NCBI GenBank assembly: GCA_035426385.1
Contig: DAOLZQ010000007.1
Span: forward strand, 252 to 64,251
Source: Saprospiraceae bacterium
Lineage (GTDB): Bacteria; Bacteroidota; Bacteroidia; Chitinophagales; Saprospiraceae
Length of the DNA stretch: 64,000 bases
Direction: 5' to 3'
The notes under the pieces are model-generated. The model saw only the letters and a program-made list of their open reading frames with translations, made no database searches and had not been told where the DNA came from. Shown here piece by piece: positions 3,523-50,126 of the stretch. The translations under genes were made by a program, and so were the position numbers. The stretch's first letter is position 1. Every line of letters starts with the position of its first letter.

Positions 3523-4239
3523 ATGAATCAGGAAATTATCTCTATTAAATCCTTGTCCAAGGTATATTTTATGGGTGACCAAAAGCTGATGGCGCTGCGG
3601 GATGTGACTTTGTCTATTACTAAGAATGAATATGTCGCGCTGATGGGACCTTCGGGTTCGGGTAAATCCACACTCATGAATATTTTAGGTTGTCTGGACT
3701 CTCCCACCTCCGGTAGCTATACACTCAATGGCATCAACGTAAGTCAGATGATAGATAATGACCTGGCGGCGGTTCGAAATAAAGAGATCGGGTTTATATT
3801 CCAGACCTTTAATCTGCTACCCCGCCTCAGTGCACTTGACAATGTGGCCATACCACTCATATACGCAGGGATGTCTAAGAAGCAAAGGGTAGAAAAAGCA
3901 ACTATCGCACTGGAAAAAGTGGGGCTTACGGATCGTATGAAACACCGGCCAAATGAACTCTCAGGTGGTCAAAGACAACGGGTCGCTATCGCACGTGCTA
4001 TCGTCAATGATCCGGCAATAATTCTCGCAGATGAACCGACCGGTAACCTAGACACTAAAACCAGTCTGGAAATCATGGCCATCTTTGAAACCATGCATCA
4101 AGCGGGAAACACCATTATAGTCGTAACTCACGAACCTGATATCGCAGAGTATGCACACCGAATCGTCAGGCTGAGGGATGGTAATATAGAGAGTGACCAG
4201 GTAAATCCGAATCCGGTCATACAGGGCGTGGTAATGTAA
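3523..4239 (+). CDS. ABC transporter ATP-binding protein, MacB/LolD-like
   Basis: Walker [10 protein letters not shown], signature LSGGQRQR, Walker B ILADEPT and an H-loop VTHE. No permease gene is adjacent. Confidence 0.85.
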
Positions 4240-4503
4240 TATTTAGATGGAATTTAGAAAAGAAATATCAATTTGAGAACTGAGACAGATACAGTTATTC
4301 TCAATTCTGTTAAAATAAATACAAGATTAAATGCTAAAAAACTACACCGCAAAATCTACATTGGATTAAGATATATATATTACTTTTTTAATACAACAAT
4401 TTATGATGTGCAAAAAAAATCACCATATAAGTATCTGAAATAAGGCAAAGAAACCTATTTCCTTACTATTTAGATTGATATAGATATTATTGAATTAATT
4501 CAA

Positions 4504-4512
4504 AGTACCCCA
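4504..4512. repeat. left copy of 9-bp direct repeat AGTACCCCA
   Basis: Identical 9-mer at 6507-6515. The two copies bracket the low-GC two-gene cassette. Confidence 0.3.
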
Positions 4513-4571
4513 TTTTATTAATCTAATGTAAATCGTATGACATTTAGACTCTTTTCATTCAAATCTACATA

Positions 4572-6023
4572 CTAAATAATATATAATCCAGGACTTAAAG
4601 ATGGAATTTGGAATTTTATAAATCTTAAATCCTCGTATTGATCTAAAGACAACTCATATAGTTTTTCCCCAAGAAGGGAAAATAAAGCCATTTTCTGTCC
4701 AAACTTAATTGCCTGATCAAATTCTATTTGAAGCAATTTATTTGTTACAGGATTAACGATTTTGAAACCTAAGTTTACTTTCTTATTTGCGACCTTGGCA
4801 CTTCTTTCATTGGAATTGAATGAAGTGAGCTTTGAGATTAATGGGTTATTATATGTATAAATTAATAATATAGTATTATCATCATCTTTAACTATCGGAA
4901 GATTTAAACGACGTCGCTTATCCTCCACCATACTCAAAATTTTATTGTATAGATTAGAATTATACACCTTAATAAAATAGTCATCAGAACTAAAGTCAGG
5001 TGATAAATCAAAAAAATTAAAAGCGCTGGAATACCGATTATCAATGACTACACCGGTGAGCAATTCAAGCAAAACTCCGCTCTGCTTATCATAGACATAG
5101 TTTCTAATCTTATTTTTAAATCCCGAAGATATGACCAGATTGTCCTTATTGTTATGGTAAGAATTTATCAAATAGTTGGTATCAATTAGAATAGCGTCTG
5201 CAACCGGATCATGAATCTGATCTAACTTATCTTTTATCATCTTATTATCTACTTTAGAGGCAACAATTGTATATTTATTAATTATGCTGCCATCGAATGA
5301 AATTTCAAATATTTCACCTGAATATAGATTACTATACATAATAAGTCCTCTTTTCTCATCGACTTGTAATCTATTAGAAATCTTAAAATTGTAAGCGGAA
5401 TTAAATAAATCATTACCGTTTTCATTTAATTCCTTCTTAGTTATTGTTGAAATTATAACACCATTGCTATCTGCAATTAAAAGCGCCTTGGAAAAATACT
5501 CGGGTTTATCTGAATTGAAGGGAGTATAAAACACAAATTTCCTACTAATTGAAGAATATTTAAAATCCATCACATTATAAGGGAGTAAAACCCGACTGAT
5601 CTCCTGATTTGAAGGAATATCAAATTTAGCAAGGGAACTAATAGCGGTATTCAGTATATATAGTTGATTATCTGATTCGGAGACATTAAATTTAAAATCA
5701 TGTCCTGAAGTATTCATATCCAAAACACCTACTGAACCAAGAAAGCGACCTTCCAAATCAAACTTGAATACCAGCCCACCATATTTATAATCAGTCAGGT
5801 AAATGAAATGAGGTGTCATTTTCAAGTCTAGAATGTAATTAAGTCGAAAAGTATCAGATCTGTCCAATGCTACATAACGGGGTAAATTATAAGGAAGCTC
5901 AAAATTTTCACCGTTTTTATAAAACTTATACGCATCTTCTATAGGTAACTGTTGGGAAAATACCTGGTGGATGGAAAATGAGCAAAAGGCAATTGAGGCA
6001 TATTTAAGAACTACGGATTTCAT
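4572..6023 (-). CDS. secreted beta-propeller-like protein (resembles the Bacteroidota 6-bladed beta-propeller/DUF5128 family) with degenerate T9SS-like C-terminal domain
   Basis: N-terminal signal peptide. Repeated segments such as FIYLTDYKYGGLVFKFDLEGRFLGSVG resemble propeller blades. The C-terminus VNPVTNKLLQIEF...LFSLLGEKLYELSL...LSPGLYII resembles a T9SS sorting domain. The gene is very AT-rich. Confidence 0.5.
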   Translation of the reverse strand: MKSVVLKYASIAFCSFSIHQVFSQQLPIEDAYKFYKNGENFELPYNLPRYVALDRSDTFRLNYILDLKMTPHFIYLTDYKYGGLVFKFDLEGRFLGSVGVLDMNTSGHDFKFNVSESDNQLYILNTAISSLAKFDIPSNQEISRVLLPYNVMDFKYSSISRKFVFYTPFNSDKPEYFSKALLIADSNGVIISTITKKELNENGNDLFNSAYNFKISNRLQVDEKRGLIMYSNLYSGEIFEISFDGSIINKYTIVASKVDNKMIKDKLDQIHDPVADAILIDTNYLINSYHNNKDNLVISSGFKNKIRNYVYDKQSGVLLELLTGVVIDNRYSSAFNFFDLSPDFSSDDYFIKVYNSNLYNKILSMVEDKRRRLNLPIVKDDDNTILLIYTYNNPLISKLTSFNSNERSAKVANKKVNLGFKIVNPVTNKLLQIEFDQAIKFGQKMALFSLLGEKLYELSLDQYEDLRFIKFQIPSLSPGLYII

Positions 6024-6034
6024 GAGTTATACTT

Positions 6035-6430
6035 TTATTTTGAATTAGAATCAATATCAAATGTAGCAGTACATGATCCGCACAAACTAGCACAATCGGA
6101 CTGTCTTGTAATACAATCCGTGCCCGGATTGCACCAAATAAATCCTCCAAAATGACAAGTATATATATATGTCTGAGTGGAGAAAAATCGTTGATTTCCA
6201 TCTTCGCAGCAGCAAATCAGACTACCTATTATAGGTCCACTCTGACTATTACAAGCGTAATCCAAAACCCAAATCCAAACGGGGGCAAGTTGGTTGCAAT
6301 ATCCAGGAATAACAACGTGGATCTTTGATATTATTTGTAAATCATTTCTTTCTGGAATTGATGCCTTAAGGCTAAAAACAGATAGAATTAATAAGAAAAG
6401 AATAAGATTAACAATTTTCATCATAAACAT
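6035..6430 (-). CDS. secreted cysteine-rich small protein (11 Cys in about 108 mature residues), unknown family
   Basis: Signal peptide MFMMKIVNLILFLLILSVFSLKA. The mature part has 11 cysteines including a CCC triplet. An 11-nt gap separates it from the downstream propeller gene. The gene is AT-rich. Confidence 0.55.
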   Translation of the reverse strand: MFMMKIVNLILFLLILSVFSLKASIPERNDLQIISKIHVVIPGYCNQLAPVWIWVLDYACNSQSGPIIGSLICCCEDGNQRFFSTQTYIYTCHFGGFIWCNPGTDCITRQSDCASLCGSCTATFDIDSNSK

Positions 6431-6506
6431 TTCCTTTATAAAAATATAAGTATTTTTATAATTTTTAGTTAATAATATGTTAATATTAAAAACTTTCCAT
6501 CACTCT

Positions 6507-6515
6507 AGTACCCCA
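6507..6515. repeat. right copy of 9-bp direct repeat AGTACCCCA
   Basis: Identical to 4504-4512. It lies 14 nt downstream of the cdaA stop codon. Confidence 0.3.
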
Positions 6516-6528
6516 ATCTCCTTTAAAC

Positions 6529-7326
6529 CTATAACTCGGGTGTATGCGTCACCGTGTTTTTTGATAGCTTCTCTTCACCCTTTATGGCTGTGCGCAGATA
6601 TTGGAGTACTTGATCTTCCTCCAACTGCATATTCAGATTACCACGATAAGCGTGAGCAATTGTACCACGCTCCTCAGATACGATAAACACATGCGCATTG
6701 CTAACTTCGCTTAGGCCGAGTCCGGCGCGATGTCGCAAGCCCGCATGTGGCGGCAGAGTTAAGTTGTCGGATACCGGAAGGATACAACTGGCTTTATATA
6801 TCTTCATGTTGTAAATGACCATAGCTCCGTCGTGGAGCGGTGATTCTTTATTGAAGATACTGACGATCAATTGCTTGGTTACTTCCGCATTGATGAGAAT
6901 CCCACTATCCTCCAGACCTGGAAAATTGAGGTCTTCGGCCAGCACGATGAGTGCTCCTACCCGTTCTTTGGCCATTCTAAGCATAGAACTATGTAATTGA
7001 GCCACCATAGGAGATTCTTCCAGAGGGGCCTTCATAATTCTGAAAAAGCGACCATTAAAGAAGGGTATGTTACCCTTGACGGCGTTATTTCCAAGCACAA
7101 GGAGAAACTTGCGTATCTCCGGCTGGAAGATGATAACCAAAGCAATCACTCCAACTGATACAAACTGGCCCAGTATCATGGTGAGCAGCTCCATTTTTAA
7201 GAGAGTGACGATCCACCAGGCAATGAAAAGAACGGTAATCCCGAGAAAAATATAGAAAGCAAGCCCACCCTTCAGTAGTTTATAGATCCTGAAGATCAGA
7301 TAGGCAACAATGATGATATCCAGCAA
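6529..7326 (-). CDS. cdaA: diadenylate cyclase CdaA (c-di-AMP synthase)
   Basis: Three N-terminal TM helices followed by a DAC domain with HDGAMVI and RHRAGLGLSE..VFIVSEERG motifs. The track start is a TTG at 7326. The open frame continues upstream to 7380, so the true start may be higher (see findings). Confidence 0.85.
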   Translation of the reverse strand: MLDIIIVAYLIFRIYKLLKGGLAFYIFLGITVLFIAWWIVTLLKMELLTMILGQFVSVGVIALVIIFQPEIRKFLLVLGNNAVKGNIPFFNGRFFRIMKAPLEESPMVAQLHSSMLRMAKERVGALIVLAEDLNFPGLEDSGILINAEVTKQLIVSIFNKESPLHDGAMVIYNMKIYKASCILPVSDNLTLPPHAGLRHRAGLGLSEVSNAHVFIVSEERGTIAHAYRGNLNMQLEEDQVLQYLRTAIKGEEKLSKNTVTHTPEL

Positions 7327-16371: not shown

Positions 16372-18021
16372 TTAATATGATTGAATTCTTGAGATCAATT
16401 CCTTCCTGTCTGAATACGACTTAACAATATGAGACTTGATCAATTTCACTTTATCAGGGAAAGAATTGAAGAGCATTTCCTTCAGTAATTTTTCGACCGA
16501 CACATACGACTTATCACCAAGATGGCTGGTGAGAAATTGATCTACAATATGAACTATATCCTCATCAGATATGGTAATTTGCTGTCTGGTCAAAATGGGG
16601 AAATATCGCACCAAGCCTTCCATATTTAAATATTGGCAAATAAACAGTCCTGCGCGGCTGTATTCTTCATTTAGCATCAATATCATGAGGAATAAAGAGG
16701 AAGGTTCAAACTCATTCTCCGAAGTAAAAATTTGTAATAATGACTCGACCCATTGTTTCTGTTTGCGGGCTTCATCAAATTGGATAATTTTCAAAATGGA
16801 GCTATCAGCCCACTTCCCTGAATTCATTAAGTACTTAAACAACTCGGTATAAAGCTGTCTATTCTCTGATAGAATCAAGAAATTGCTAAACTGATTGAGC
16901 AACGCTTCAGAGCAATTTGCGAAATTGCGGCTCCCCACAGCTTTAATTATCTCTCTGGTCAGGCTCGCGTGAAGTGTCTTGCTCTCTTGTATGAAGGTCA
17001 GTACAGCAGATAGAAAGAAATCATCTTGTAGATTTCCCTGCAAAACATTCAGGAACTTAACATCCTTTTTATATTCGGTGTAATAAATCGCATAATAAAG
17101 CCAAGCGCCCTTATTGCGAACATCGTTCTCCTGCAATTTATCAAGAAAAATCTTCTTGATCTCTGCATGTCTATCCGGAAAAGCATGAGATACTAAAAAT
17201 TCAACAGCATTATACTTTTTAAAATAATTGTAAGCGTCCTGTCTGATCAAGTCAAAAAATAACTGTATGATCTGCCTGTAGAACGAAGGCGCCAGCTTCA
17301 TATTCAGATAAACATTCAAAATCTTGTGTGCCTGAACGTAAAAATTATTATTAAAAATCGAGAAATTGACTGCGCTTTCCAATTTCAATGCATGTAGAAA
17401 TAGTCCTCGAAGGACCATGAAGCTCTCTACGAATTCTTCATTTTCCAGCAATCTATCACAGCGATATAGGTGGATATTGAAAATATTTTCAATATCATAT
17501 ATCGCCTTTTTATTTTTTGATCCATCATTCTTGATGACCACGCGTGCATACTTGTCCAGATATTCTGAGAATAATTGCTCATCACCTGCCAGCTTATATT
17601 CAAAAAACTGCCGAAACTGGTTCTTAAACTGCACATTAGCCGGGACATAATACCTGATAAAGTCAAACAACTCATCTGAAGTGACCATTTCAAGTACCTG
17701 CTCAAAACTAAAGCGAACCGGATTTCGCATGCTGATCAATCCTTCTGTGGGGGGATTGAGTAGATAGAGTACAGCGGGAATATGCACACAGCCTCTGTCT
17801 TGCTTGAAGTCCGGACAACTGCAGACAGCATTTAGGATATATTTCTGAGTCTGAAACAGTTCTAGGCTGTATTGCCTGTTTTGTGAAGGCTTATACTTAG
17901 CTTCGATCTTATCCTTCTGTTGTATTACCTCCCAGTCACTGCGTACTGCGGCCAATTCTCGTGCGTTCCTGAGCCAAGCATCAGGAAATGACTCTTCAAA
18001 AGTTGACTTTTTGAATTTCAA
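16372..18021 (-). CDS. SWIM zinc-finger domain protein, otherwise uncharacterised helical protein
   Basis: CxC-x8-CxH motif C67-S-C69...C78-V-H80 (nt 17782-17823). The remainder is about 470 aa and predicted helical. There is a 12-nt gap to rlmH. Confidence 0.6.
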   Translation of the reverse strand: MKFKKSTFEESFPDAWLRNARELAAVRSDWEVIQQKDKIEAKYKPSQNRQYSLELFQTQKYILNAVCSCPDFKQDRGCVHIPAVLYLLNPPTEGLISMRNPVRFSFEQVLEMVTSDELFDFIRYYVPANVQFKNQFRQFFEYKLAGDEQLFSEYLDKYARVVIKNDGSKNKKAIYDIENIFNIHLYRCDRLLENEEFVESFMVLRGLFLHALKLESAVNFSIFNNNFYVQAHKILNVYLNMKLAPSFYRQIIQLFFDLIRQDAYNYFKKYNAVEFLVSHAFPDRHAEIKKIFLDKLQENDVRNKGAWLYYAIYYTEYKKDVKFLNVLQGNLQDDFFLSAVLTFIQESKTLHASLTREIIKAVGSRNFANCSEALLNQFSNFLILSENRQLYTELFKYLMNSGKWADSSILKIIQFDEARKQKQWVESLLQIFTSENEFEPSSLFLMILMLNEEYSRAGLFICQYLNMEGLVRYFPILTRQQITISDEDIVHIVDQFLTSHLGDKSYVSVEKLLKEMLFNSFPDKVKLIKSHIVKSYSDRKELISRIQSY

Positions 18022-19899: not shown

Positions 19900-20958
19900 A
19901 TGTTCAAAAATATCACACCTCGTCAGGTCGCCATCTATTGTACTACTCTAATCGTATTTCTTGAGATCCTGGTACTGATGTTAATATTCTTGTTTACGAA
20001 ACCAGATTATCCGATTCCAATTATAATCATCTTTTCACTCTGCTCGTGGGTACTTTGTTTTCTAATCACTAACTATTTCATTAGTCGATATGTATATCGT
20101 AGGATTAAGCCCATTTACAAAATTATCCATGATAAGAAAGTAAGTACGCAGCAATCCATGTTTGATGATGATCAGGCAGATGTTTTCAACATGGTTGACG
20201 AGGATGTATCCAGCTGGGCTGAAGAAAAGCAAAAAACGATAGAGCATCTGAGACTTTTGGAGAATTATCGTCGTGATTTTCTGGGTAATGTATCACATGA
20301 GTTGAAGACACCGATATTTAACATCCAGGGGTTCCTGCATACTTTGATCGATGGTGCTTTGGAAGATAAGGATTTAACTGTAAAATATCTGCATAGAGCA
20401 TCATCCAATGTAGACAGACTTCAGACTATCGTAGAAAATCTAGAATCGATATCTGCACTGGAATTGGGAGCCACTGTACTTACCACCGAAAAATTCGACA
20501 TTCGTAAATTAACTGAAGAAGTATTTGATCACCTAGAACTAAAAGCCCGTGCCAAGCATATAAAGTTGATTCTAAAAGATGGAGCAGATCAGCCATATAA
20601 AGTAGTAGGAGACAAAGAATATATCAGACAGGCACTAACCAATCTTGTTGCGAATTCGATCAAGTATGGTAAAGATGGTGGGAAGACCCGGGTGGGATTC
20701 TATGATATGGCTACTTACTTACTTGTAGAAGTAGCAGATAATGGTATAGGAATAGAGCATCAGCATCTCAATCATGTCTTTGACCGATTTTACCGCGTCG
20801 ATACCGGAAGAAGTCGCACCGAAGGAGGCTCAGGACTGGGACTGTCTATCGTAAAGCACATAATGGAGGCACATCAACAGACCATCAATATTCGGAGTAC
20901 GCCGGGTGAAGGAAGCACTTTCGGATTTACACTCCAACTCTCATCGGGAAAAATCTAA
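19900..20958 (+). CDS. sensor histidine kinase (HisKA + HATPase_c)
   Basis: Two TM helices, H-box NVSHELKTP, N-box LTNLVANSIKY, G1 DNGIGI and G2 GGSGLGLSI. Confidence 0.9.
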   Translation: MFKNITPRQVAIYCTTLIVFLEILVLMLIFLFTKPDYPIPIIIIFSLCSWVLCFLITNYFISRYVYRRIKPIYKIIHDKKVSTQQSMFDDDQADVFNMVDEDVSSWAEEKQKTIEHLRLLENYRRDFLGNVSHELKTPIFNIQGFLHTLIDGALEDKDLTVKYLHRASSNVDRLQTIVENLESISALELGATVLTTEKFDIRKLTEEVFDHLELKARAKHIKLILKDGADQPYKVVGDKEYIRQALTNLVANSIKYGKDGGKTRVGFYDMATYLLVEVADNGIGIEHQHLNHVFDRFYRVDTGRSRTEGGSGLGLSIVKHIMEAHQQTINIRSTPGEGSTFGFTLQLSSGKI

Positions 20959-23528
20959 TCAGGATAGCTGACCACGATTGACGTTTTGTCTTTTCGAATG
21001 GAGCCGTCAGGATGAAGGAAACTGACCTCTATGATATAAATGCCGGCCATCACTTTTTGATTTTGATCATTATCACCCTCCCAGACAAAATATCCCGAAG
21101 CACCTGTGAGTTCTGTCTGACCGTTAGACTTGACTTGTCTACCTCTGGCATCATAGACGCGCCAGGTTAGTTTATAGCCGCCTTTGTCCAACTGATATCC
21201 CACTAATAATTGATCTAAGTATCCGTCGCCATTGGGTGAAAGGTACTCCTGCTGTACATCAAGTATAGAAGTATTGGCTGAAATGTTCCTGGTCTGTGAG
21301 TTTTGTCCCGTAGGTGTTCCTTTCAATGAGGTAGAGGCCGACTGCCAGGTCGATCTGTCAGTCGAACTGAGTGCAGGTGATAAACGCTCCAGTGAAATAC
21401 CCTTTGTGTTTTTGATAAAGCTATTGTGCATTTTCTGATCGTAATCCATTGAGTCTAGCAGAATGGCAGCGGCATCGTTACCATAGAATAAACTCACATT
21501 TCCTTTGTCCTGATTGAAAGCTGGAAGCTTAGTAAGCTGTACTAGGTTGGTAGGCTTGGGTACCACGTATTGGGCCAAGATAAAATCTCTATCTGCAGTA
21601 AATACCACCAACTCTTTTGGTTGTATATATATATTCCTACCTATTGAGACAGCTTCACTTTTTTGTGTATTCCTGATGCTCAGCGGGGCTAAATCGATAA
21701 TACGCTCGCCTGTATTGAGAATCTCTACATAATCAGAACCGCCGGTCAATGGATCGAACAGGATTTCATTGATCAATAATTCCCCCGGCGTCGGCGCTTC
21801 AAAACGACCAAAGCAAATAGTATCCATTTTATAGAGGACACTACCGATACAGTTCACCGGTTGATCGATATATATGCAGTTCAACTGATTCGCAGGGGGA
21901 TTCTCCACAAACTTCAACTCTGCGCAGCTTGAAATTCCTGTTGTAACCAAATTATAACTTAGATTCTGATCATTACTAAAAGCACTTCGTGTAGCAGCAG
22001 CATCAAAATCCAGAGTCTCATTGAAGCATATTTGCAACGATCCCAATGAATCAGTATAATATGAGCGGACCAATGGCAAGTCGAGCTCTGTGCTATTCAG
22101 AGAATTAACTCTGCCTGGTGTGCCCCCCGACAGATTGATTGAAGCCTTGAAAGGATCTTGCAAGCACAATGCACCTTCGCCTGATAATTCCAGTGTCCAG
22201 CCACCTTCTTTCTTGGTATCATCCCGATATGATTTATCTGTAAAGGACACCATATGGATGACAGTGCCTGATGTGGATTTAATTGAGAAAGAATTTCCTG
22301 TATTATTTATGGACGGAAAAGAAGGCACCCCAATAGCATTCGAATAAGCGGAAAATAGAGGGAGGCTTCCGGTTGAGGTAAGTATAACATAACTATCCGC
22401 CGATAATTCATAAGCAGGCAGAGCAATGGCTGTGGTCTCCTTGAGAAGCTGCAATTGATTTAGATTGATAGGTGAATCACTGCGATTATATAGCTCTATG
22501 AATTCAGCATTTGGCAGTGCAACCTGTGGAGTTGGATCAGCCATGATTTCATTTATGAGTACGTCAAATGGATGAATAGTCTGTAGAGACAGTATGACTT
22601 TAATTTGAGTTTTGATTAAAATATTTCCGACCTTATCAGAAATATCTTTGATAATTAAAAAATATGGCTGGTTTGGGATAAGCGGATTTGCCGGAAAAAG
22701 AGATATAATATTGTCCTGGGTTGAAATATCTTCAAAAGGTACCTGATTCCCCATTAAATTGAGCAGTAGAAAATTAGAAGTATCTAAAGTTGCCAGTGGT
22801 TCATCAAAGACAAGTGTGATCCGAGAATCTATATCCACCGTTGAAGAGACCAGTTCAGGAGGTTTTGTATCTCTGATGATTCGATTGATATAGATATTAT
22901 CAAAAGTATAATTCTTAATATTTGAGACGGTGTACTCCATTGAGCAGCCGAAGTATGTATCTTCACCTGTACTCCAAGTGGGCACTTCAGTCTCCAGGAT
23001 AGGAATAGTAGTATTCGACAGATCGGTAAAAGTAATCGTGATCAAGTGATCAATTATATTACAAGTCAGAGTTCCTGCAGGTTTAGTCGCAAAGACTCCA
23101 TCTCCACCACGCGCCAAAAGTGTCTCCATGCCATCCACTACAGCAATAAGCTGTATACCATCATTGCTACCCGTCTCTCCGATACGGAGCAGGATTGCAT
23201 TCTTTCCCTTGAGTGAGGCTGAGTCACTTTGAAGGCAGATTTCAAGATAATTTTGAGTAGAAGGAGAGAAATTTAGTTTTAAAAAGCACTGCAACTGCAT
23301 CGAATCAGTATAGTTTACAATAGTCGAAAAATAACTTCTTCCAGCTGCCGGAGCATTCAGAATAGCTTGTTTTTCAGCATTTATAATAAAATGCGTGGTC
23401 GTTCCCATCCACAGGCCGGAGGTATTGAACTCAGGTCCGTCAAAATTTTCCACCACCTGAGCTTGTGATACAGAGCTCCACCAGAGTATAATACCCAAGA
23501 TCCCTGCAATAACTCTGACTAAATTCAT
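20955..23528 (-). CDS. large secreted protein with two lamin-tail-domain (LTD)-like modules and an SPNGDG-type (T9SS type B / FlgD-Ig-like) C-terminal domain
   Basis: Signal peptide. LINEIMADPTP...IELYN and LLINEILFDPLTGGSDYVEILNTG resemble LTD signatures. The C-terminus is YLSPNGDGYLD...GIYIIEVSF. Confidence 0.6.
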   Translation of the reverse strand: MNLVRVIAGILGIILWWSSVSQAQVVENFDGPEFNTSGLWMGTTTHFIINAEKQAILNAPAAGRSYFSTIVNYTDSMQLQCFLKLNFSPSTQNYLEICLQSDSASLKGKNAILLRIGETGSNDGIQLIAVVDGMETLLARGGDGVFATKPAGTLTCNIIDHLITITFTDLSNTTIPILETEVPTWSTGEDTYFGCSMEYTVSNIKNYTFDNIYINRIIRDTKPPELVSSTVDIDSRITLVFDEPLATLDTSNFLLLNLMGNQVPFEDISTQDNIISLFPANPLIPNQPYFLIIKDISDKVGNILIKTQIKVILSLQTIHPFDVLINEIMADPTPQVALPNAEFIELYNRSDSPINLNQLQLLKETTAIALPAYELSADSYVILTSTGSLPLFSAYSNAIGVPSFPSINNTGNSFSIKSTSGTVIHMVSFTDKSYRDDTKKEGGWTLELSGEGALCLQDPFKASINLSGGTPGRVNSLNSTELDLPLVRSYYTDSLGSLQICFNETLDFDAAATRSAFSNDQNLSYNLVTTGISSCAELKFVENPPANQLNCIYIDQPVNCIGSVLYKMDTICFGRFEAPTPGELLINEILFDPLTGGSDYVEILNTGERIIDLAPLSIRNTQKSEAVSIGRNIYIQPKELVVFTADRDFILAQYVVPKPTNLVQLTKLPAFNQDKGNVSLFYGNDAAAILLDSMDYDQKMHNSFIKNTKGISLERLSPALSSTDRSTWQSASTSLKGTPTGQNSQTRNISANTSILDVQQEYLSPNGDGYLDQLLVGYQLDKGGYKLTWRVYDARGRQVKSNGQTELTGASGYFVWEGDNDQNQKVMAGIYIIEVSFLHPDGSIRKDKTSIVVSYPD

Positions 23529-45812: not shown

Positions 45813-46910
45813 TTACAGTTTCAGGACTCGACCGGTGAACCTTACTCCGTCGAGATTTTCTGCTTGGATCAGATAAAATCCTTTAACCCAACTGCCCACT
45901 TCAATGATTTGATCTCCAGAAATATTACCCTTCCACATAACCTTTCCCTGAATATCCAAGATTTGTACATTATAAGTAATCATTTGGTCGGAAAAGGATA
46001 TATTTAGAATCTTGTCAGCCGGAACAGGTGAGATCTGTGCAACAGTCTCAATAGGTGCAGTCTTTAACTTATTATTTAGTTTCCAGTTGGTCCTATATTC
46101 TAGTCTGTATCTTGCAGTAGGTCTTTGTTTACCCACTTTCGCTACAAATCCTCTTACCTCGGGAGACCAATAGATAAATTCATGGCCAGCGGTATTTAGA
46201 TTCTCCGACCCCGGAAATAGACTAGTTATGTCTTGCCAGCCAAGAAATGGGATATACATTTCTAAGGTTGTAGTCGTACGAAAACCATGATTAAACTGAA
46301 CTACCGGATAGCTTTCCTCCGGTAATTTCAAGATGCCACTACCTGACATAGAAAGCGTATCAGCCCATGCAATAGTGATCCTGAATGAATCCGGTTTTAT
46401 AGGTAATTGATTTAGAATTGAATCCGGCAATATAGAGGAAGGGAAGCTATTCCTAGCTTGTGAAGCAGTAATATGCTTATCACCAAGCCCAGTGGGGACA
46501 AAAACTTCAGGAACCGATGGATTATACTTCAAGTTGACGGGAAAAGGACCAAAATTTCCTGCCATACCTAGGAATTGTAGCGAAGTCGGATTGCTAAATA
46601 GATAATTTTCACTCATTGGATTTTGGGAAGTAGTCATCATCAGATTAGCAGAGGAAAATGCTGCGTGATTGTTTCCGGTAGCAGGATCTCTATAATAATA
46701 TCCTATGCTGCTATTCTGACTGATCTGTTGGAAATCCCAGGTCTGATTCAATCCGGTCTGAATCCCACTAGTAGAATCAAAAGATGAAGTGGAGGATACA
46801 TAGATAGAATCTCCGATTATAGGGAAAGAGGTGTCCGATATAGATATCTGACTATAACCAATGCAGACTCCTAAACCCATAAAGAGTACTACTAATAAAC
46901 TAACTTTCAT
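45813..46910 (-). CDS. uncharacterised secreted protein with T9SS type A sorting domain
   Basis: Signal peptide MKVSLLVVLFMGLGVCIGYSQ. The C-terminus ISPVPADKILNISF...ILDIQGKVMW...GFYLIQA is a sorting domain. There is an 8-nt gap to the upstream gene. Confidence 0.65.
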   Translation of the reverse strand: MKVSLLVVLFMGLGVCIGYSQISISDTSFPIIGDSIYVSSTSSFDSTSGIQTGLNQTWDFQQISQNSSIGYYYRDPATGNNHAAFSSANLMMTTSQNPMSENYLFSNPTSLQFLGMAGNFGPFPVNLKYNPSVPEVFVPTGLGDKHITASQARNSFPSSILPDSILNQLPIKPDSFRITIAWADTLSMSGSGILKLPEESYPVVQFNHGFRTTTTLEMYIPFLGWQDITSLFPGSENLNTAGHEFIYWSPEVRGFVAKVGKQRPTARYRLEYRTNWKLNNKLKTAPIETVAQISPVPADKILNISFSDQMITYNVQILDIQGKVMWKGNISGDQIIEVGSWVKGFYLIQAENLDGVRFTGRVLKL

Positions 46911-46918
46911 ATATAAGA

Positions 46919-48487
46919 TTATAATTTAATGAATTTTTGAGTCAACTGGTTATCAGAGGTCTTTACCCTTGCGAAATAACTTCCCGCCGGCAATGTATGT
47001 ATATCAATCTCCATTTGATACATTCCATTGTCTGCATACTGATTGCTGTATTTAGAAATAAACACTTTGCCATTAAGATCAATGATATCCACAGTAATGG
47101 GCTGAGCTCTGCTAAGTGTAAAAGGAACTGTAATTTTGTTTTTAGAAGGATCGGGATATATTGGGAAGATCTTGTCCTTCATAAAATCAAGAACCACCTT
47201 TTTATTATCCAGTATATCACCGAATACCAAATTCTCATCACCCGGTTGATACGTCATAAAAATCAGAGGCAAATAATACATCTCATCCGAAGTTTTCTCA
47301 CCCCAAGATACAGTTTTAGGCGGGTTATTTGGATTATAAGGATTATTTGTGGTGTTATCATACGTAGCAAAAGCGTGTATCTGTGACCCTTTCGGAAGTA
47401 CTACGGGCTTTACAAAGTTGTACGCACCCTGCCAGTTGAAGTCCCAATCATTTATTTTCATCACATCAATGCGGGTTTGGTTCGGTAGTACCGCATAGAT
47501 CTCCCACTTTCTGCCCAATAAGTGCATATGGGGTGAGACGCCCAGGAAAGTGACATCATATGGGAGTGTGATGAGTCCATGAAATTCTTTGACCGTATTT
47601 GGTGGTATCACAAATACATCGCCTTGTAAAACACCGGGGATAGGCAACATGACATACGACTGTACGAAGCGCGTAGGAATGTCTTTACTAAAGAATAAAT
47701 TGATAGAAGTACTATCCCATTCATCTGTAGCGGAGGGCGCATAGTGCATTTGCAATAGTAAATCAGAATTTTTAGGGATTCTCATTGCTAATCCATCAGT
47801 ATAAACTATGGGTTTCTGACCGGGTACATATCCCGGTAGTTGATTGTTCAGTTGACCCGATATTGAGCTGCTAGAACCTGAAAATCCATATTCCGGTGTA
47901 GCCGCATCCGCATCTCGCGAGGCTGAAGTAGAATCTGCCCATATCAGAGTGTGATGTACGACCTTCTTGTTCCCCGGTCTAACCTCCAGTGCAGTCAGAT
48001 ATTTGGTTTCAGTCAGGTGAGTTGGAATAACAAAGTAACGATACTCATCGGTACCTGTACCTTTGTGTAAATAGGATTGGGCAAATGAGACTACCATATC
48101 CGGAGTACCGATCTGCGAACCCGTAGGAAATACGGGGAATTGCGGTTCAATATTGGGATCACCTCTTTCCATTCCCTGATCTACCCAGGTGGATATCAGA
48201 TTAATTTCTTCATCTGACAAGAAATTTTGCTTTTGATAGTCACGGATTCCTCTTTCAGGCTTGAAAGGCGGCATATATTTGATCCCGGTGACATACTTAA
48301 TAAAATTTCCCCGATCCTTGACTTCTGCGTAGTTGGTCAACGAAAAAGGCGCGATTTCGCCCGGTCTATGACAAGAACCACATTTATTATATATGATCGG
48401 AGCAATATGCTCTGCAAAAGTAACTTGTTGTGCCTCGGCTTTATAAAAGATGCCAAAGCAAAGAATAGATAATAATAGAATTCGCAT
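46919..48487 (-). CDS. secreted CxxCH-motif / PHM-DBH-type copper monooxygenase-like protein with T9SS sorting domain
   Basis: Signal peptide, then C36-G-S-C-H40 in an IAPIIYNKCGSCH...MPPF context. The copper ligand pattern is H178-H179, H248, H320-x-H322 and M403 (in TSDEM), plus DWDFNWQ. The C-terminus IYPDPSKNKITVPF...GSYFARV is a T9SS domain. Confidence 0.7.
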   Translation of the reverse strand: MRILLLSILCFGIFYKAEAQQVTFAEHIAPIIYNKCGSCHRPGEIAPFSLTNYAEVKDRGNFIKYVTGIKYMPPFKPERGIRDYQKQNFLSDEEINLISTWVDQGMERGDPNIEPQFPVFPTGSQIGTPDMVVSFAQSYLHKGTGTDEYRYFVIPTHLTETKYLTALEVRPGNKKVVHHTLIWADSTSASRDADAATPEYGFSGSSSSISGQLNNQLPGYVPGQKPIVYTDGLAMRIPKNSDLLLQMHYAPSATDEWDSTSINLFFSKDIPTRFVQSYVMLPIPGVLQGDVFVIPPNTVKEFHGLITLPYDVTFLGVSPHMHLLGRKWEIYAVLPNQTRIDVMKINDWDFNWQGAYNFVKPVVLPKGSQIHAFATYDNTTNNPYNPNNPPKTVSWGEKTSDEMYYLPLIFMTYQPGDENLVFGDILDNKKVVLDFMKDKIFPIYPDPSKNKITVPFTLSRAQPITVDIIDLNGKVFISKYSNQYADNGMYQMEIDIHTLPAGSYFARVKTSDNQLTQKFIKL

Positions 48488-48497
48488 GATTTTTCTT

Positions 48498-49052
48498 TTA
48501 TTTTATGATAAAACAGCCAATAGGTTCCGTATTGGCGGGTATACTCTTTGTGCCATATAATACATTCTCCAGGGCATCAGCTACATATTTTTCTGTAACT
48601 ACTGACCTTTTCTTTCCAAGAGTTTCATATTGATTGTCCAATTTTCCTCTATACAAAATAGAATTTCTCTGATTATCCCACAGTATCACCTCGGGAGTAA
48701 TAGATGCTTTGAATTTTCGAGTCCATTTCTGGCCTTTATCAACTACCGACTCACAATGCAAGTTATATTTTTCTTTAAAATTCTCAATTGATTCTTTTGT
48801 GGACTCTCGATTATTGGGAAATATCATAACAAATTGCACACTGTCAGAACTATATCGGGCCATTAATTCTTTCCAATTGAGCGTGATCTGCTGACAAATG
48901 GGACAAGATTCGGATACAAAAATGTAAATAGTGTAAAGTGGTTTCTCATTGCTACTGCTTATAGAGCTACTATATAGGTCGACGCCGGCTATTGAAAAAC
49001 TCAGAAAAAGTACAAAAAATAATCTCATAACTTTGATCATATGTCGGTCCAT
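48498..49052 (-). CDS. secreted thioredoxin-fold protein (CPIC active site)
   Basis: Hydrophobic leader, YIFVSESCPICQQ (CxxC) and ITPEVILW (a cis-Pro-like loop). There is a 10-nt gap to the monooxygenase-like gene. Confidence 0.7.
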   Translation of the reverse strand: MDRHMIKVMRLFFVLFLSFSIAGVDLYSSSISSSNEKPLYTIYIFVSESCPICQQITLNWKELMARYSSDSVQFVMIFPNNRESTKESIENFKEKYNLHCESVVDKGQKWTRKFKASITPEVILWDNQRNSILYRGKLDNQYETLGKKRSVVTEKYVADALENVLYGTKSIPANTEPIGCFIIK

Positions 49053-49159: not shown

Positions 49160-49477
49160 ATGTCAGAACAACAACAACCGGAAAATCAACTGAATATCGA
49201 ATTAAGCGAAGAAGTCGCTGAAGGTACATATGCCAATCTGGCTATTATCACCCATTCACACAGCGAGTTTGTGGTAGACTTTATTCGTGTCATGCCCAAT
49301 GTTCCCAAGGCAAAAGTGCAATCTCGCATCATCATGACACCTCAACACGCTAAGAGATTGCTAAATGCACTTCGTGATAATATCACGAAATTTGAAAATA
49401 ATTTTGGGGCAATCCAAGATTTGGAAATGCCACCTATACCGCCGATTAACTTTAATGCTCCGAAGGCAAAAGCCTAA
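49160..49477 (+). CDS. DUF3467-family protein
   Basis: EGTYANLAIITHSHSEFVVDFIRVMPN...AKVQSRIIMTPQHAKRLLNAL matches my recollection of DUF3467. Confidence 0.65.
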   Translation: MSEQQQPENQLNIELSEEVAEGTYANLAIITHSHSEFVVDFIRVMPNVPKAKVQSRIIMTPQHAKRLLNALRDNITKFENNFGAIQDLEMPPIPPINFNAPKAKA

Positions 49478-49514
49478 TTCGCTAAATTATATTTTTAAAA
49501 ATAAAGGGATTAAT

Positions 49515-50126
49515 ATGAAATACAGGATGAATTCTTTGCTCCAGGTAAAGTCAATGGTATTTTTGAGTTTTATTTTTTGGCTTCCATTTATGGGTCAGGC
49601 TCAGGTAGAGCAGACTCCGAAAGAAAAAGAATCCTATACTAATCCATCTATTAATAATAGAGCTGCCCCACCCCGCTACGAGCATCGAGGTGACAGAAGA
49701 GGTGGAGACCAGTGTACCTGTCGAGAGTGCCAGCATAAGATGAATATGCAGGCACATCAAGGACCGATGATGACGCCCGAAGAAGGTGCAATGAATATCA
49801 ATAGATATCGTAAACTGCGTAATACAGGGATAGGACTGATGATAGGTGGTGCTGTAGTTACTGGAGCAGGAATAGGTATCCTGGCATATAGCTTTGTAAA
49901 GAAGGATAAAGAAGGTGAATATAAATTCACCGACAGTCCTGATCCTATCCTGGCTATTGCGGGCAGTGGTACTGCCCTATTGGGCAGTGCAGCGCTAACT
50001 TCAGGGACAGTACTGACAATAGTAAGCTCTATTAAGATGAATCGAACCCGCTCAGCCATGAGGGATATGGGTACTCTCGATTTACAGTCCGGCAGAAATG
50101 GTTTAGGGCTTTGCCTAAGGTTCTAA
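49515..50126 (+). CDS. hypothetical membrane protein
   Basis: I chose the in-frame ATG at 49515 (MKYRMNSLLQVKSMVFLSFIFWLPFMGQAQ signal) rather than the track start at 49365, which overlaps DUF3467. There are two Gly-rich TM segments. Confidence 0.5.
   Translation: MKYRMNSLLQVKSMVFLSFIFWLPFMGQAQVEQTPKEKESYTNPSINNRAAPPRYEHRGDRRGGDQCTCRECQHKMNMQAHQGPMMTPEEGAMNINRYRKLRNTGIGLMIGGAVVTGAGIGILAYSFVKKDKEGEYKFTDSPDPILAIAGSGTALLGSAALTSGTVLTIVSSIKMNRTRSAMRDMGTLDLQSGRNGLGLCLRF

Follow-up and report, generated by a model that had tools for sequence, protein, structure and literature searches.

Bases 4240–6528 of a 64,000-nucleotide (nt) stretch of a Saprospiraceae contig (DAOLZQ010000007.1; hereafter, the window) carry two co-directional genes, one for a secreted cysteine-rich protein of 131 amino acids (aa) and, directly downstream of it, one for a 483-aa protein related to DUF5128 propellers that are cargo of the T9SS (type IX secretion system). 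From the homology and gene linkage of these two proteins, we read this low-GC stretch (hereafter, the cassette) as a self-contained two-gene operon for a conserved secreted pair that would act as a surface binding module, and we hold this reading with moderate confidence.

The two genes belong together well beyond the window. In seven of the eight propeller lineages that could be assessed, including the window (two further contigs were too short to judge pairing and were left out), a gene for a small protein with the motif CCCxDGN lies 5–256 nt upstream on the same strand. An initial annotation, made from the letters of the window alone, had raised the co-occurrence of the pair in other genomes as a point to be checked; it was looked for and found in these lineages. 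On the contig of the propeller homologue P0004 (L087), the directly upstream gene encodes a 120-aa homologue of the window's 131-aa protein, with matching segments ...NCCCEDGNGYTFEAPTYKWTCSFGGWMLCNPPEGCYTREMDCVNYCAPC... in L087 and ...ICCCEDGNQRFFSTQTYIYTCHFGGFIWCNPGTDCITRQSDCASLCGSC... in the window. The small gene is also upstream of P0005 (L088), P0009 (L090, GCA_041631795.1), P0010 (L092, about 61% G+C), and P0011 (L093/L094, GCA_003561755.1). A metagenome scan with a five-row alignment of the small proteins recovered one further lineage (L095/L096), with a gene encoding DUF5128 and a C-terminal sorting domain (CTD) 26 nt downstream. The intergenic gap is 11 nt in the window, 5–52 nt in five other loci, and 256 nt in L088.

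The surroundings of the pair differ by locus (rplQ-carA-eno-AI-2E; PcrB/RsgA; Band_7/EamA; LysM/PNP; cdaA/ABC), and no third gene is conserved around it across the loci compared. The two partners diverge together, with pairwise identities that correlate between them (Mantel r = 0.71, p = 0.005 by exhaustive permutation), and the pair is therefore inherited as a unit. We regard the pair as a sporadic accessory element of Bacteroidota set amid housekeeping genes.

The cassette in the window comprises the following features, given with coordinates and strand:
6431–6528 (−): intergenic DNA separating cdaA from the small gene, where the promoter of the pair presumably lies (20% G+C)
6035–6430 (−): gene for the 131-aa secreted cysteine-rich protein (open reading frame (ORF), with homologues upstream of other propeller genes)
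4572–6023 (−): gene for the 483-aa propeller protein (ORF, with HMMER homologues P0004–P0011)
4572–4574 (−): premature TAG stop, where six conspecific contigs have CAG (Gln484)
4518–4571 (−): untranslated former end of the propeller ORF, 17 codons YVDLNEKSLNVIRFTLD and the original TAA (4518–4520), from sequence and tblastn
4240–4517 (no strand): AT-rich, non-coding spacer that separates the propeller gene from the convergent ABC gene, from composition, with no fold, Rfam or terminator match

The two co-directional genes 11 nt apart that were initially annotated thus correspond to the ORFs 6430..6035 and 6023..4572, both on the minus strand. The 332-bp spacer of that annotation has the right length up to the convergent ABC gene, but not all of it is spacer, as bases 4518–4571 are the cut-off end of the propeller ORF.

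The cysteine-rich protein and its propeller partner

The 131-aa protein has an N-terminal signal peptide (MFMMKIVNLILFLLILSVFSLKA), followed by a C-terminal domain of ~65 aa with 10 conserved cysteines and the motif CCCEDGN. The same plan holds throughout the family, i.e., a signal peptide, a variable linker, and a ~65-residue domain with 10 conserved cysteines and CCCxDGN, in proteins of 98–132 aa with 10–14 cysteines. The count of 11 cysteines first reported for the window protein was confirmed; the eleventh, C45, falls outside the conserved set and is polymorphic (C45F in P0028). Across seven loci, the core cysteines do not vary, and all 10 are present in every within-species variant, which suggests that the C-terminal domain may be held by five disulfides. 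Between the window and L087, the small protein is the better conserved of the two partners (43% identity vs 29% for the propeller). Inspection of the N-termini showed no cysteine in the window protein or in those of L087 and L095, and the remaining small proteins have none at the canonical lipobox position at the end of the signal peptide. In an NCBI assembly of the same species (L098; GCA_035425965.1, contig DAOLYV010000093.1, positions 499–1000), the place of the 131-aa cysteine-rich ORF is left without a gene call.

The 131-aa protein had no match in Pfam or NCBIfam, and the family profile matched no PDB sequence at E ≤ 10. When the six aligned small proteins were compared with Pfam at E ≤ 10, nothing was returned beyond one chance-level match (KdpC, E = 0.074). 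PADLOC gave no match, PHROGs gave one chance-level match only (E = 0.052), and no relative of the small protein was found on viral contigs. A word-indexed search with the small-protein alignment returned only four clusters that were already known. By these comparisons, the small protein represents an undescribed family, in all cases tied to one propeller subfamily.

The 483-aa protein consists of a signal peptide, probably cleaved between ...VFSQ and QLPIE, a divergent region that is probably a six-bladed propeller of DUF5128/NHL-like type, and a putative T9SS CTD of type A. A word-indexed search of 5.8 billion proteins with the window proteins returned near-identical copies only, and a full HMMER scan of 1.84 billion representative proteins revealed a sparse family with 9 hits and members of 480–530 aa. 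P0004 shares 31% identity along its entire length (E = 2.9e-62, aligned to window residues 45–487), and P0005–P0011 except P0008 are weaker homologues (E = 5e-9 to 2e-4); P0008 was rejected as a repetitive false hit. Six homologues pass the gathering score of PF17170 (DUF5128; 22.9 bits), i.e., P0004 (55.2 bits), P0006 (42.9), P0007 (25.0), P0009 (71.5), P0010 (26.8), and L095 (41.7). Six also pass the 27-bit cutoff of PF18962 (Por_Secre_tail), i.e., P0005, P0006, P0007, P0009, P0011, and L095, and the sorting-domain scores of the homologues range from 19.3 to 40.9 bits. Compared with the PDB, the family profile matched the NHL propellers of TRIM71 (6fpt, 1.5e-9) and Brat (1q7f, about 3e-4) as well as two T9SS CTDs (8glk_D, 5.8e-9; 8glj_D, 3.3e-5). 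The tail of the 501-aa allele of the window protein (P0001; see below) aligns weakly (E = 0.011) with the CTD of the window's M12B protease.

By transitive homology, the 483-aa protein can be assigned to the DUF5128 propeller family, and the earlier guess at a DUF5128-type propeller proved right by way of the homologues that pass PF17170. Searches of both proteins with hidden Markov models, which the initial annotation had suggested, thus gave a divided result: the window proteins themselves are unmatched, and the propeller homologues pass PF17170 and PF18962. No His, Ser or Cys is conserved among the aligned propellers, and the only positions that never vary are occupied by Gly, Phe, Tyr, and one Asp; this speaks for a binding scaffold and against an enzyme. 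A peptide-amidating-lyase-like NHL enzyme was considered and rejected, given that the alignment has no conserved histidines.

Bacteroidota proteins with PF17170 and PF18962/TIGR04183 are like the 483-aa protein in length (~480–530 aa) and domain order, whereas the window protein matches neither model, belongs to a very sparse subfamily, and is missing its last 18 residues. The family profile also aligns to the blades of NHL propellers (TRIM71, TRIM2, and Brat; 6fpt, 7b2r, and 1q7f), to one or two of them only. These examples are eukaryotic cytosolic scaffolds that bind RNA or protein, whereas the window protein is bacterial and predicted to be secreted.

A nonsense polymorphism in the export signal

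The propeller ORF of the window ends with ...GLYII-TAG. Conspecific contigs have CAG at this position and continue with QYVDLNEKSLNVIRFTLD, the end of the sorting domain. The difference is a single A/G transition at window position 4574 (variant '*484Q'), and the product of the TAG allele lacks the 18 C-terminal residues of the sorting domain; in a tblastn search, the 501-aa allele aligns across window positions 6023..4521. The exact 483-aa product was found on 13 contigs, drawn from ENA, JGI, Logan, and an NCBI assembly, and the 501-aa allele on 6 conspecific contigs. Each of the two lengths comes in several variants, and the window-like haplotype carries 501-aa alleles too. Because the stop is seen on 13 contigs of several sources and in multiple variants, the TAG/CAG polymorphism is real and not a sequencing error, and both alleles circulate in nature. 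The 'degenerate T9SS tail' first described for this protein is therefore only partly a matter of degeneracy: the tail is indeed divergent, and it is also cut by a nonsense TAG where conspecifics have CAG.

The loss of these residues is likely to matter for export. RgpB without its two C-terminal residues is retained in the periplasm, and the export signal of HBP35 sits within its last 22 residues (PMC11285876). Because export depends on the sorting domain's C-terminal strand (PMC11285876), the window allele is predicted not to be exported, and its propeller should be left in the periplasm or degraded.

Four other proteins of the window have Por_Secre_tail or CHU_C domains, which suggests that the genome uses the T9SS. 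An 866-aa T9SS cargo (58373–60973, +) contains an M12B reprolysin-like metalloprotease, two fn3 domains, GEVED, and Por_Secre_tail, and its gene is preceded by a 328-nt spacer at 25.6% G+C. An 857-aa protein (20955–23528, −) has lamin-tail and Big_5 domains and a sub-threshold CHU_C match (21.3 bits vs the 27-bit cutoff, E = 3e-4); if this match is real, type A and type B T9SS signals would both be present in the genome. Three adjacent minus-strand genes at 45813–49052 start with a thioredoxin/redoxin-like gene (48498–49052). The second (46919–48487) encodes a 522-aa T9SS cargo with a weak match to the copper type II monooxygenase C-terminal domain (PHM-like; 22.9 bits vs the 23-bit Pfam cutoff, E = 6.6e-5), and the third (45813–46910) a 365-aa T9SS cargo with no other domain. 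A secreted PHM-like protein is unusual for a bacterium.

Composition, surroundings and origin of the cassette

The G+C content is 30.1% in bases 4240–6528 vs 40.0% in the whole window, and this stretch is the minimum among all segments of 2289 nt (mean 40.0%, standard deviation (sd) 2.1%). The drop in G+C initially reported from hand counts was thus reproduced by computed sliding windows, and the counts themselves were exact (26.7% at 4861–4920 and 45.0% at 3601–3660). By part, G+C is 23.8% in bases 4240–4571, 30.9% in the 483-aa gene, 34.6% in the 131-aa gene, and 20.4% in bases 6431–6528, compared with 45.7% in the flanking ABC gene and 45.5% in cdaA. Codon-usage distance is confounded by gene length and was not used, the G+C content of third codon positions (GC3) being the cleaner measure. 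The 131-aa gene (GC3 = 0.260) and the 483-aa gene (0.277) are the two lowest among 54 ORFs (mean 0.396, sd 0.048), the next lowest being 0.328. The residues F, Y, M, I, N, and K make up 41% of the 483-aa protein vs a window mean of 32% (sd 3.9%). The unusual residue and codon make-up noted at the outset was thus also recovered. The intergenic G+C of the window is 31%, matching the 30% of the cassette.

The ABC gene encodes a LolD/MacB-like ATPase (3523–4239), and cdaA (7326..6529) lies upstream of the pair. The neighbours on the ABC side are purM, yggS, and a deoxynucleoside kinase gene, and those on the cdaA side are miaE, rplU, and rpmA, all of them housekeeping genes; in conspecific contigs, purM is followed by the tuf-to-rpoB cluster. 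The spacer at 4240–4517 has no significant fold (z = −1.1) and no consensus terminator, Rfam gave no match over the whole window, and the Bacteroidota-type TAnnTTTG (−7) motif was not found upstream of the small gene. Between conspecific strains, no stretch varies more than bases 6431–6528 (9 differences in 98 nt). The spacer also has a short (AT)n tract, at about 4365–4377, whose length varies among strains, with an indel of 6 bp relative to contig L001. Elsewhere in the window, ribosomal protein L21 (10289–10945, +) has 218 aa, with the Pfam L21 domain at residues 1–102 and a C-terminal extension of 116 residues without family match. A 549-aa ORF (16372–18021, −) and a 253-aa ORF (49365–50126, +) have no Pfam match at E ≤ 0.001.

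All conspecific contigs recovered, 6 carrying the 501-aa and 13 the 483-aa allele, have the cassette between cdaA and the ABC gene. The divergence of the cassette between haplotypes is 6.9 and 12.6 per kb, inside the flanking-gene range of 2.5–24.7, and any acquisition would therefore predate the haplotype split. The highest divergence compared, 24.7 per kb, is that of yggS (1700–2347), which has 8 non-synonymous and 6 synonymous differences between haplotypes, unlike its neighbours.

The nearest genomes are Candidatus Brachybacter algidus and three Saprospiraceae metagenome-assembled genomes, whose CdaA proteins are 49–66% identical to that of the window (65–66% for the closest). They are syntenic with the window on the upstream side of cdaA, which includes a 285-aa hypothetical gene, miaE, and an aspartyl-protease/PDZ gene, and synteny with them (L007–L010) stops exactly at the 3' end of cdaA (window 6529–7326). 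Neither the cassette nor the ABC block was found downstream of cdaA in these four genomes, L010 having been checked by tblastn only. In L007, L008, and L009, cdaA is followed by a 427–428-aa gene and a glucan-phosphorylase-like gene, neither of which is within the window. The block of the ABC, deoxynucleoside kinase, yggS, and purM genes is also missing at the cdaA site, so there is no empty site for comparison. The initial annotation had proposed to look among relatives for the ABC gene and cdaA adjacent without the cassette; the absence of the cassette after cdaA was seen, but the adjacency was not, as the ABC block is missing too. The cassette thus lies at a synteny breakpoint. No integrase, transposase or tRNA was found, nor any meaningful direct or inverted repeats at the cassette borders, and PHROG gave no match below E = 0.05. 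The earlier statement that the cassette carries no integrase or transposase therefore stands, and no mobility genes were found.

Recent horizontal acquisition from a low-GC donor, with insertion between the ABC ATPase gene and cdaA, is possible, although we lean against it. Such a transfer fits with the lowest G+C and GC3 of the window, with the different genomic contexts of the pair elsewhere, with its absence downstream of cdaA in the four nearest genomes, and with the great sparseness of the family (9 hits in a scan of 1.84 billion representative proteins). That the module is 6–12 points below the flank G+C in four of seven loci also speaks for transfer; among the other hosts, it is below by this margin in three loci and level with the flanks in three (one at 61% G+C). 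The absence of integrase, transposase, flanking repeats, and tRNA speaks against it, as do the absence of the small protein from viral contigs and the presence at this locus, with flank-like divergence, on all conspecific contigs recovered. Its G+C (30%) also equals that of the intergenic DNA (31%), as for weakly constrained native DNA, and the absence of the whole ABC–deoxynucleoside kinase–yggS–purM block at the site in the nearest genomes may point to rearrangement instead. Given its presence on all conspecific contigs, its intergenic-like G+C and the lack of mobility genes, the horizontal insertion initially proposed between the ABC gene and cdaA is a possible rather than an established origin, and the cassette may instead be an old resident drifting towards AT. 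We consider it unlikely that the cassette is decaying in this species, as a non-functional remnant after loss of selection. Decay agrees with the wide occurrence of a premature stop that removes an essential export signal (13 contigs), with GC3 at the intergenic level, and with the haplotype differences, which are 11 non-synonymous and 4 synonymous in the cassette but 18 and 31, respectively, in its flanking genes (p = 0.018, Fisher test). However, apart from this stop, both frames run open for 483 and 131 codons in AT-rich DNA that is prone to stops, and no variant has lost any of the 10 core cysteines. The stop is recent, given that full-length 501-aa alleles persist and some of them share its haplotype background, and intact copies in other genomes show the same AT shift. 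Weak or diversifying selection and foreign origin both fit the composition and substitution data, and an AT-rich block without mobility genes can be explained equally by weak constraint or by transfer, which calls for caution.

A putative binding module and its alternatives

From the observed gene structure, composition, homology, pairing, and nonsense polymorphism, we infer a complex of the two proteins, an export route for the small one, and a binding function. The small protein, exported by Sec, and the propeller would both reach the periplasm, where the cysteine-rich protein would bind the propeller. The CTD would then carry the propeller through the type IX system to the cell surface, and the small partner would travel along with it or be handed off at export. 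At the surface, the pair would serve in binding and not in catalysis, given that no catalytic residue is conserved in the propeller family. In the window strain, the CAG-to-TAG change would block export of the propeller.

Several results weigh against this reading. The 483-aa protein has no Pfam or NCBIfam match and, like the 501-aa allele P0001, no DUF5128 or sorting-domain match at E ≤ 1. P0006 (L091) is the sole assessable lineage without an upstream partner. The small protein has a Sec signal only and no sorting domain, and so no evident route out of the periplasm. Both AlphaFold models are of low confidence and lend the complex no structural support, with a mean predicted local distance difference test (pLDDT) score of 35.6 for the 501-aa allele (single sequence), too poor for use, and of 50.3 for the small protein (four-row alignment), in which the signal peptide alone is confident. 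The non-synonymous excess and the nonsense allele are, in addition, compatible with decay in the species.

Two known systems invite comparison. NVEALA small proteins (PF14055 in Pfam-A) are reportedly encoded next to DUF5128 propeller genes in Bacteroidales; literature searches for NVEALA and DUF5128 matched no paper. The likeness lies in a small exported protein encoded beside a DUF5128-type propeller; the partner in the window family differs in being larger (98–132 aa), with 10–14 cysteines and the CCCxDGN motif. No NVEALA motif is visible in the small-protein alignment, and the six small proteins have no such Pfam match at E ≤ 10, in agreement with the initial suggestion that this is a partner other than NVEALA. 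The nearest documented operon grammar is that of the potempin/KLIKK system of Tannerella forsythia, in which ORFs of 98–132 residues lie immediately upstream of T9SS cargo genes and are co-transcribed with them (PMC9890683). Potempins, which adopt OB or eight-stranded barrel folds, are lipoproteins of the outer membrane that act as peptidase inhibitors and form stable, specific complexes with their T9SS cargo partners (PMC9890683). The two systems share a small ORF directly upstream of, and co-directional with, a T9SS cargo gene. In contrast to potempins, the small protein of the window family has a non-lipoprotein, disulfide-rich domain, and its partner is a propeller without a peptidase domain or an evident catalytic site; potempins and CCCxDGN proteins show no sequence relationship.

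This likeness raises the possibility, rather improbable in our judgement, of a potempin-like guard or inhibitor, i.e., a small protein that binds the propeller in the periplasm, keeps it inactive or protected, and stays in the cell. The operon grammar is that of potempin/KLIKK (PMC9890683), the small proteins have 98–132 aa, the gaps are 5–52 nt in six of seven loci, and a Sec signal alone would suit a protein that remains inside. However, potempins are beta-barrel lipoproteins that inhibit peptidases, and here there is no lipobox cysteine at the end of the signal peptide. With no conserved catalytic residues in the propeller, a target of inhibition is also hard to see, and the small protein is not similar to any known inhibitor. 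The roles could also be turned around, with the small protein as an effector, a disulfide-rich antimicrobial or toxin-like peptide, and the propeller as its carrier, maturation factor or immunity protein, which we think quite unlikely. Dense cysteine frameworks in short secreted domains are typical of stable extracellular peptides, and the small protein has such a conserved framework and is more conserved than the propeller; the within-species non-synonymous excess could reflect diversifying selection. Yet no bacteriocin, toxin or defence model matched, no exporter, protease or immunity gene is conserved nearby, and a Sec signal alone gives no route across the outer membrane. It is far-fetched, though conceivable, that the CCCxDGN protein would represent a new class of five-disulfide secreted effector that lacks an export signal for itself and is exported piggy-back through the T9SS as a folded complex on the propeller, a dedicated carrier with the sorting domain, with TAG/CAG switching it between surface and periplasm.

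The secreted pair that we favour would bear on a wider question, as Bacteroidota secrete many proteins that are so far unexplained, DUF5128-type propellers among them. The small-protein family, being without a Pfam or NCBIfam model and uncalled in L098, is currently invisible to annotation. The alleles with and without a T9SS export signal in one species constitute a natural experiment, and the linked, co-diverging cysteine-rich partner may provide a concrete, testable handle on DUF5128-type propellers.

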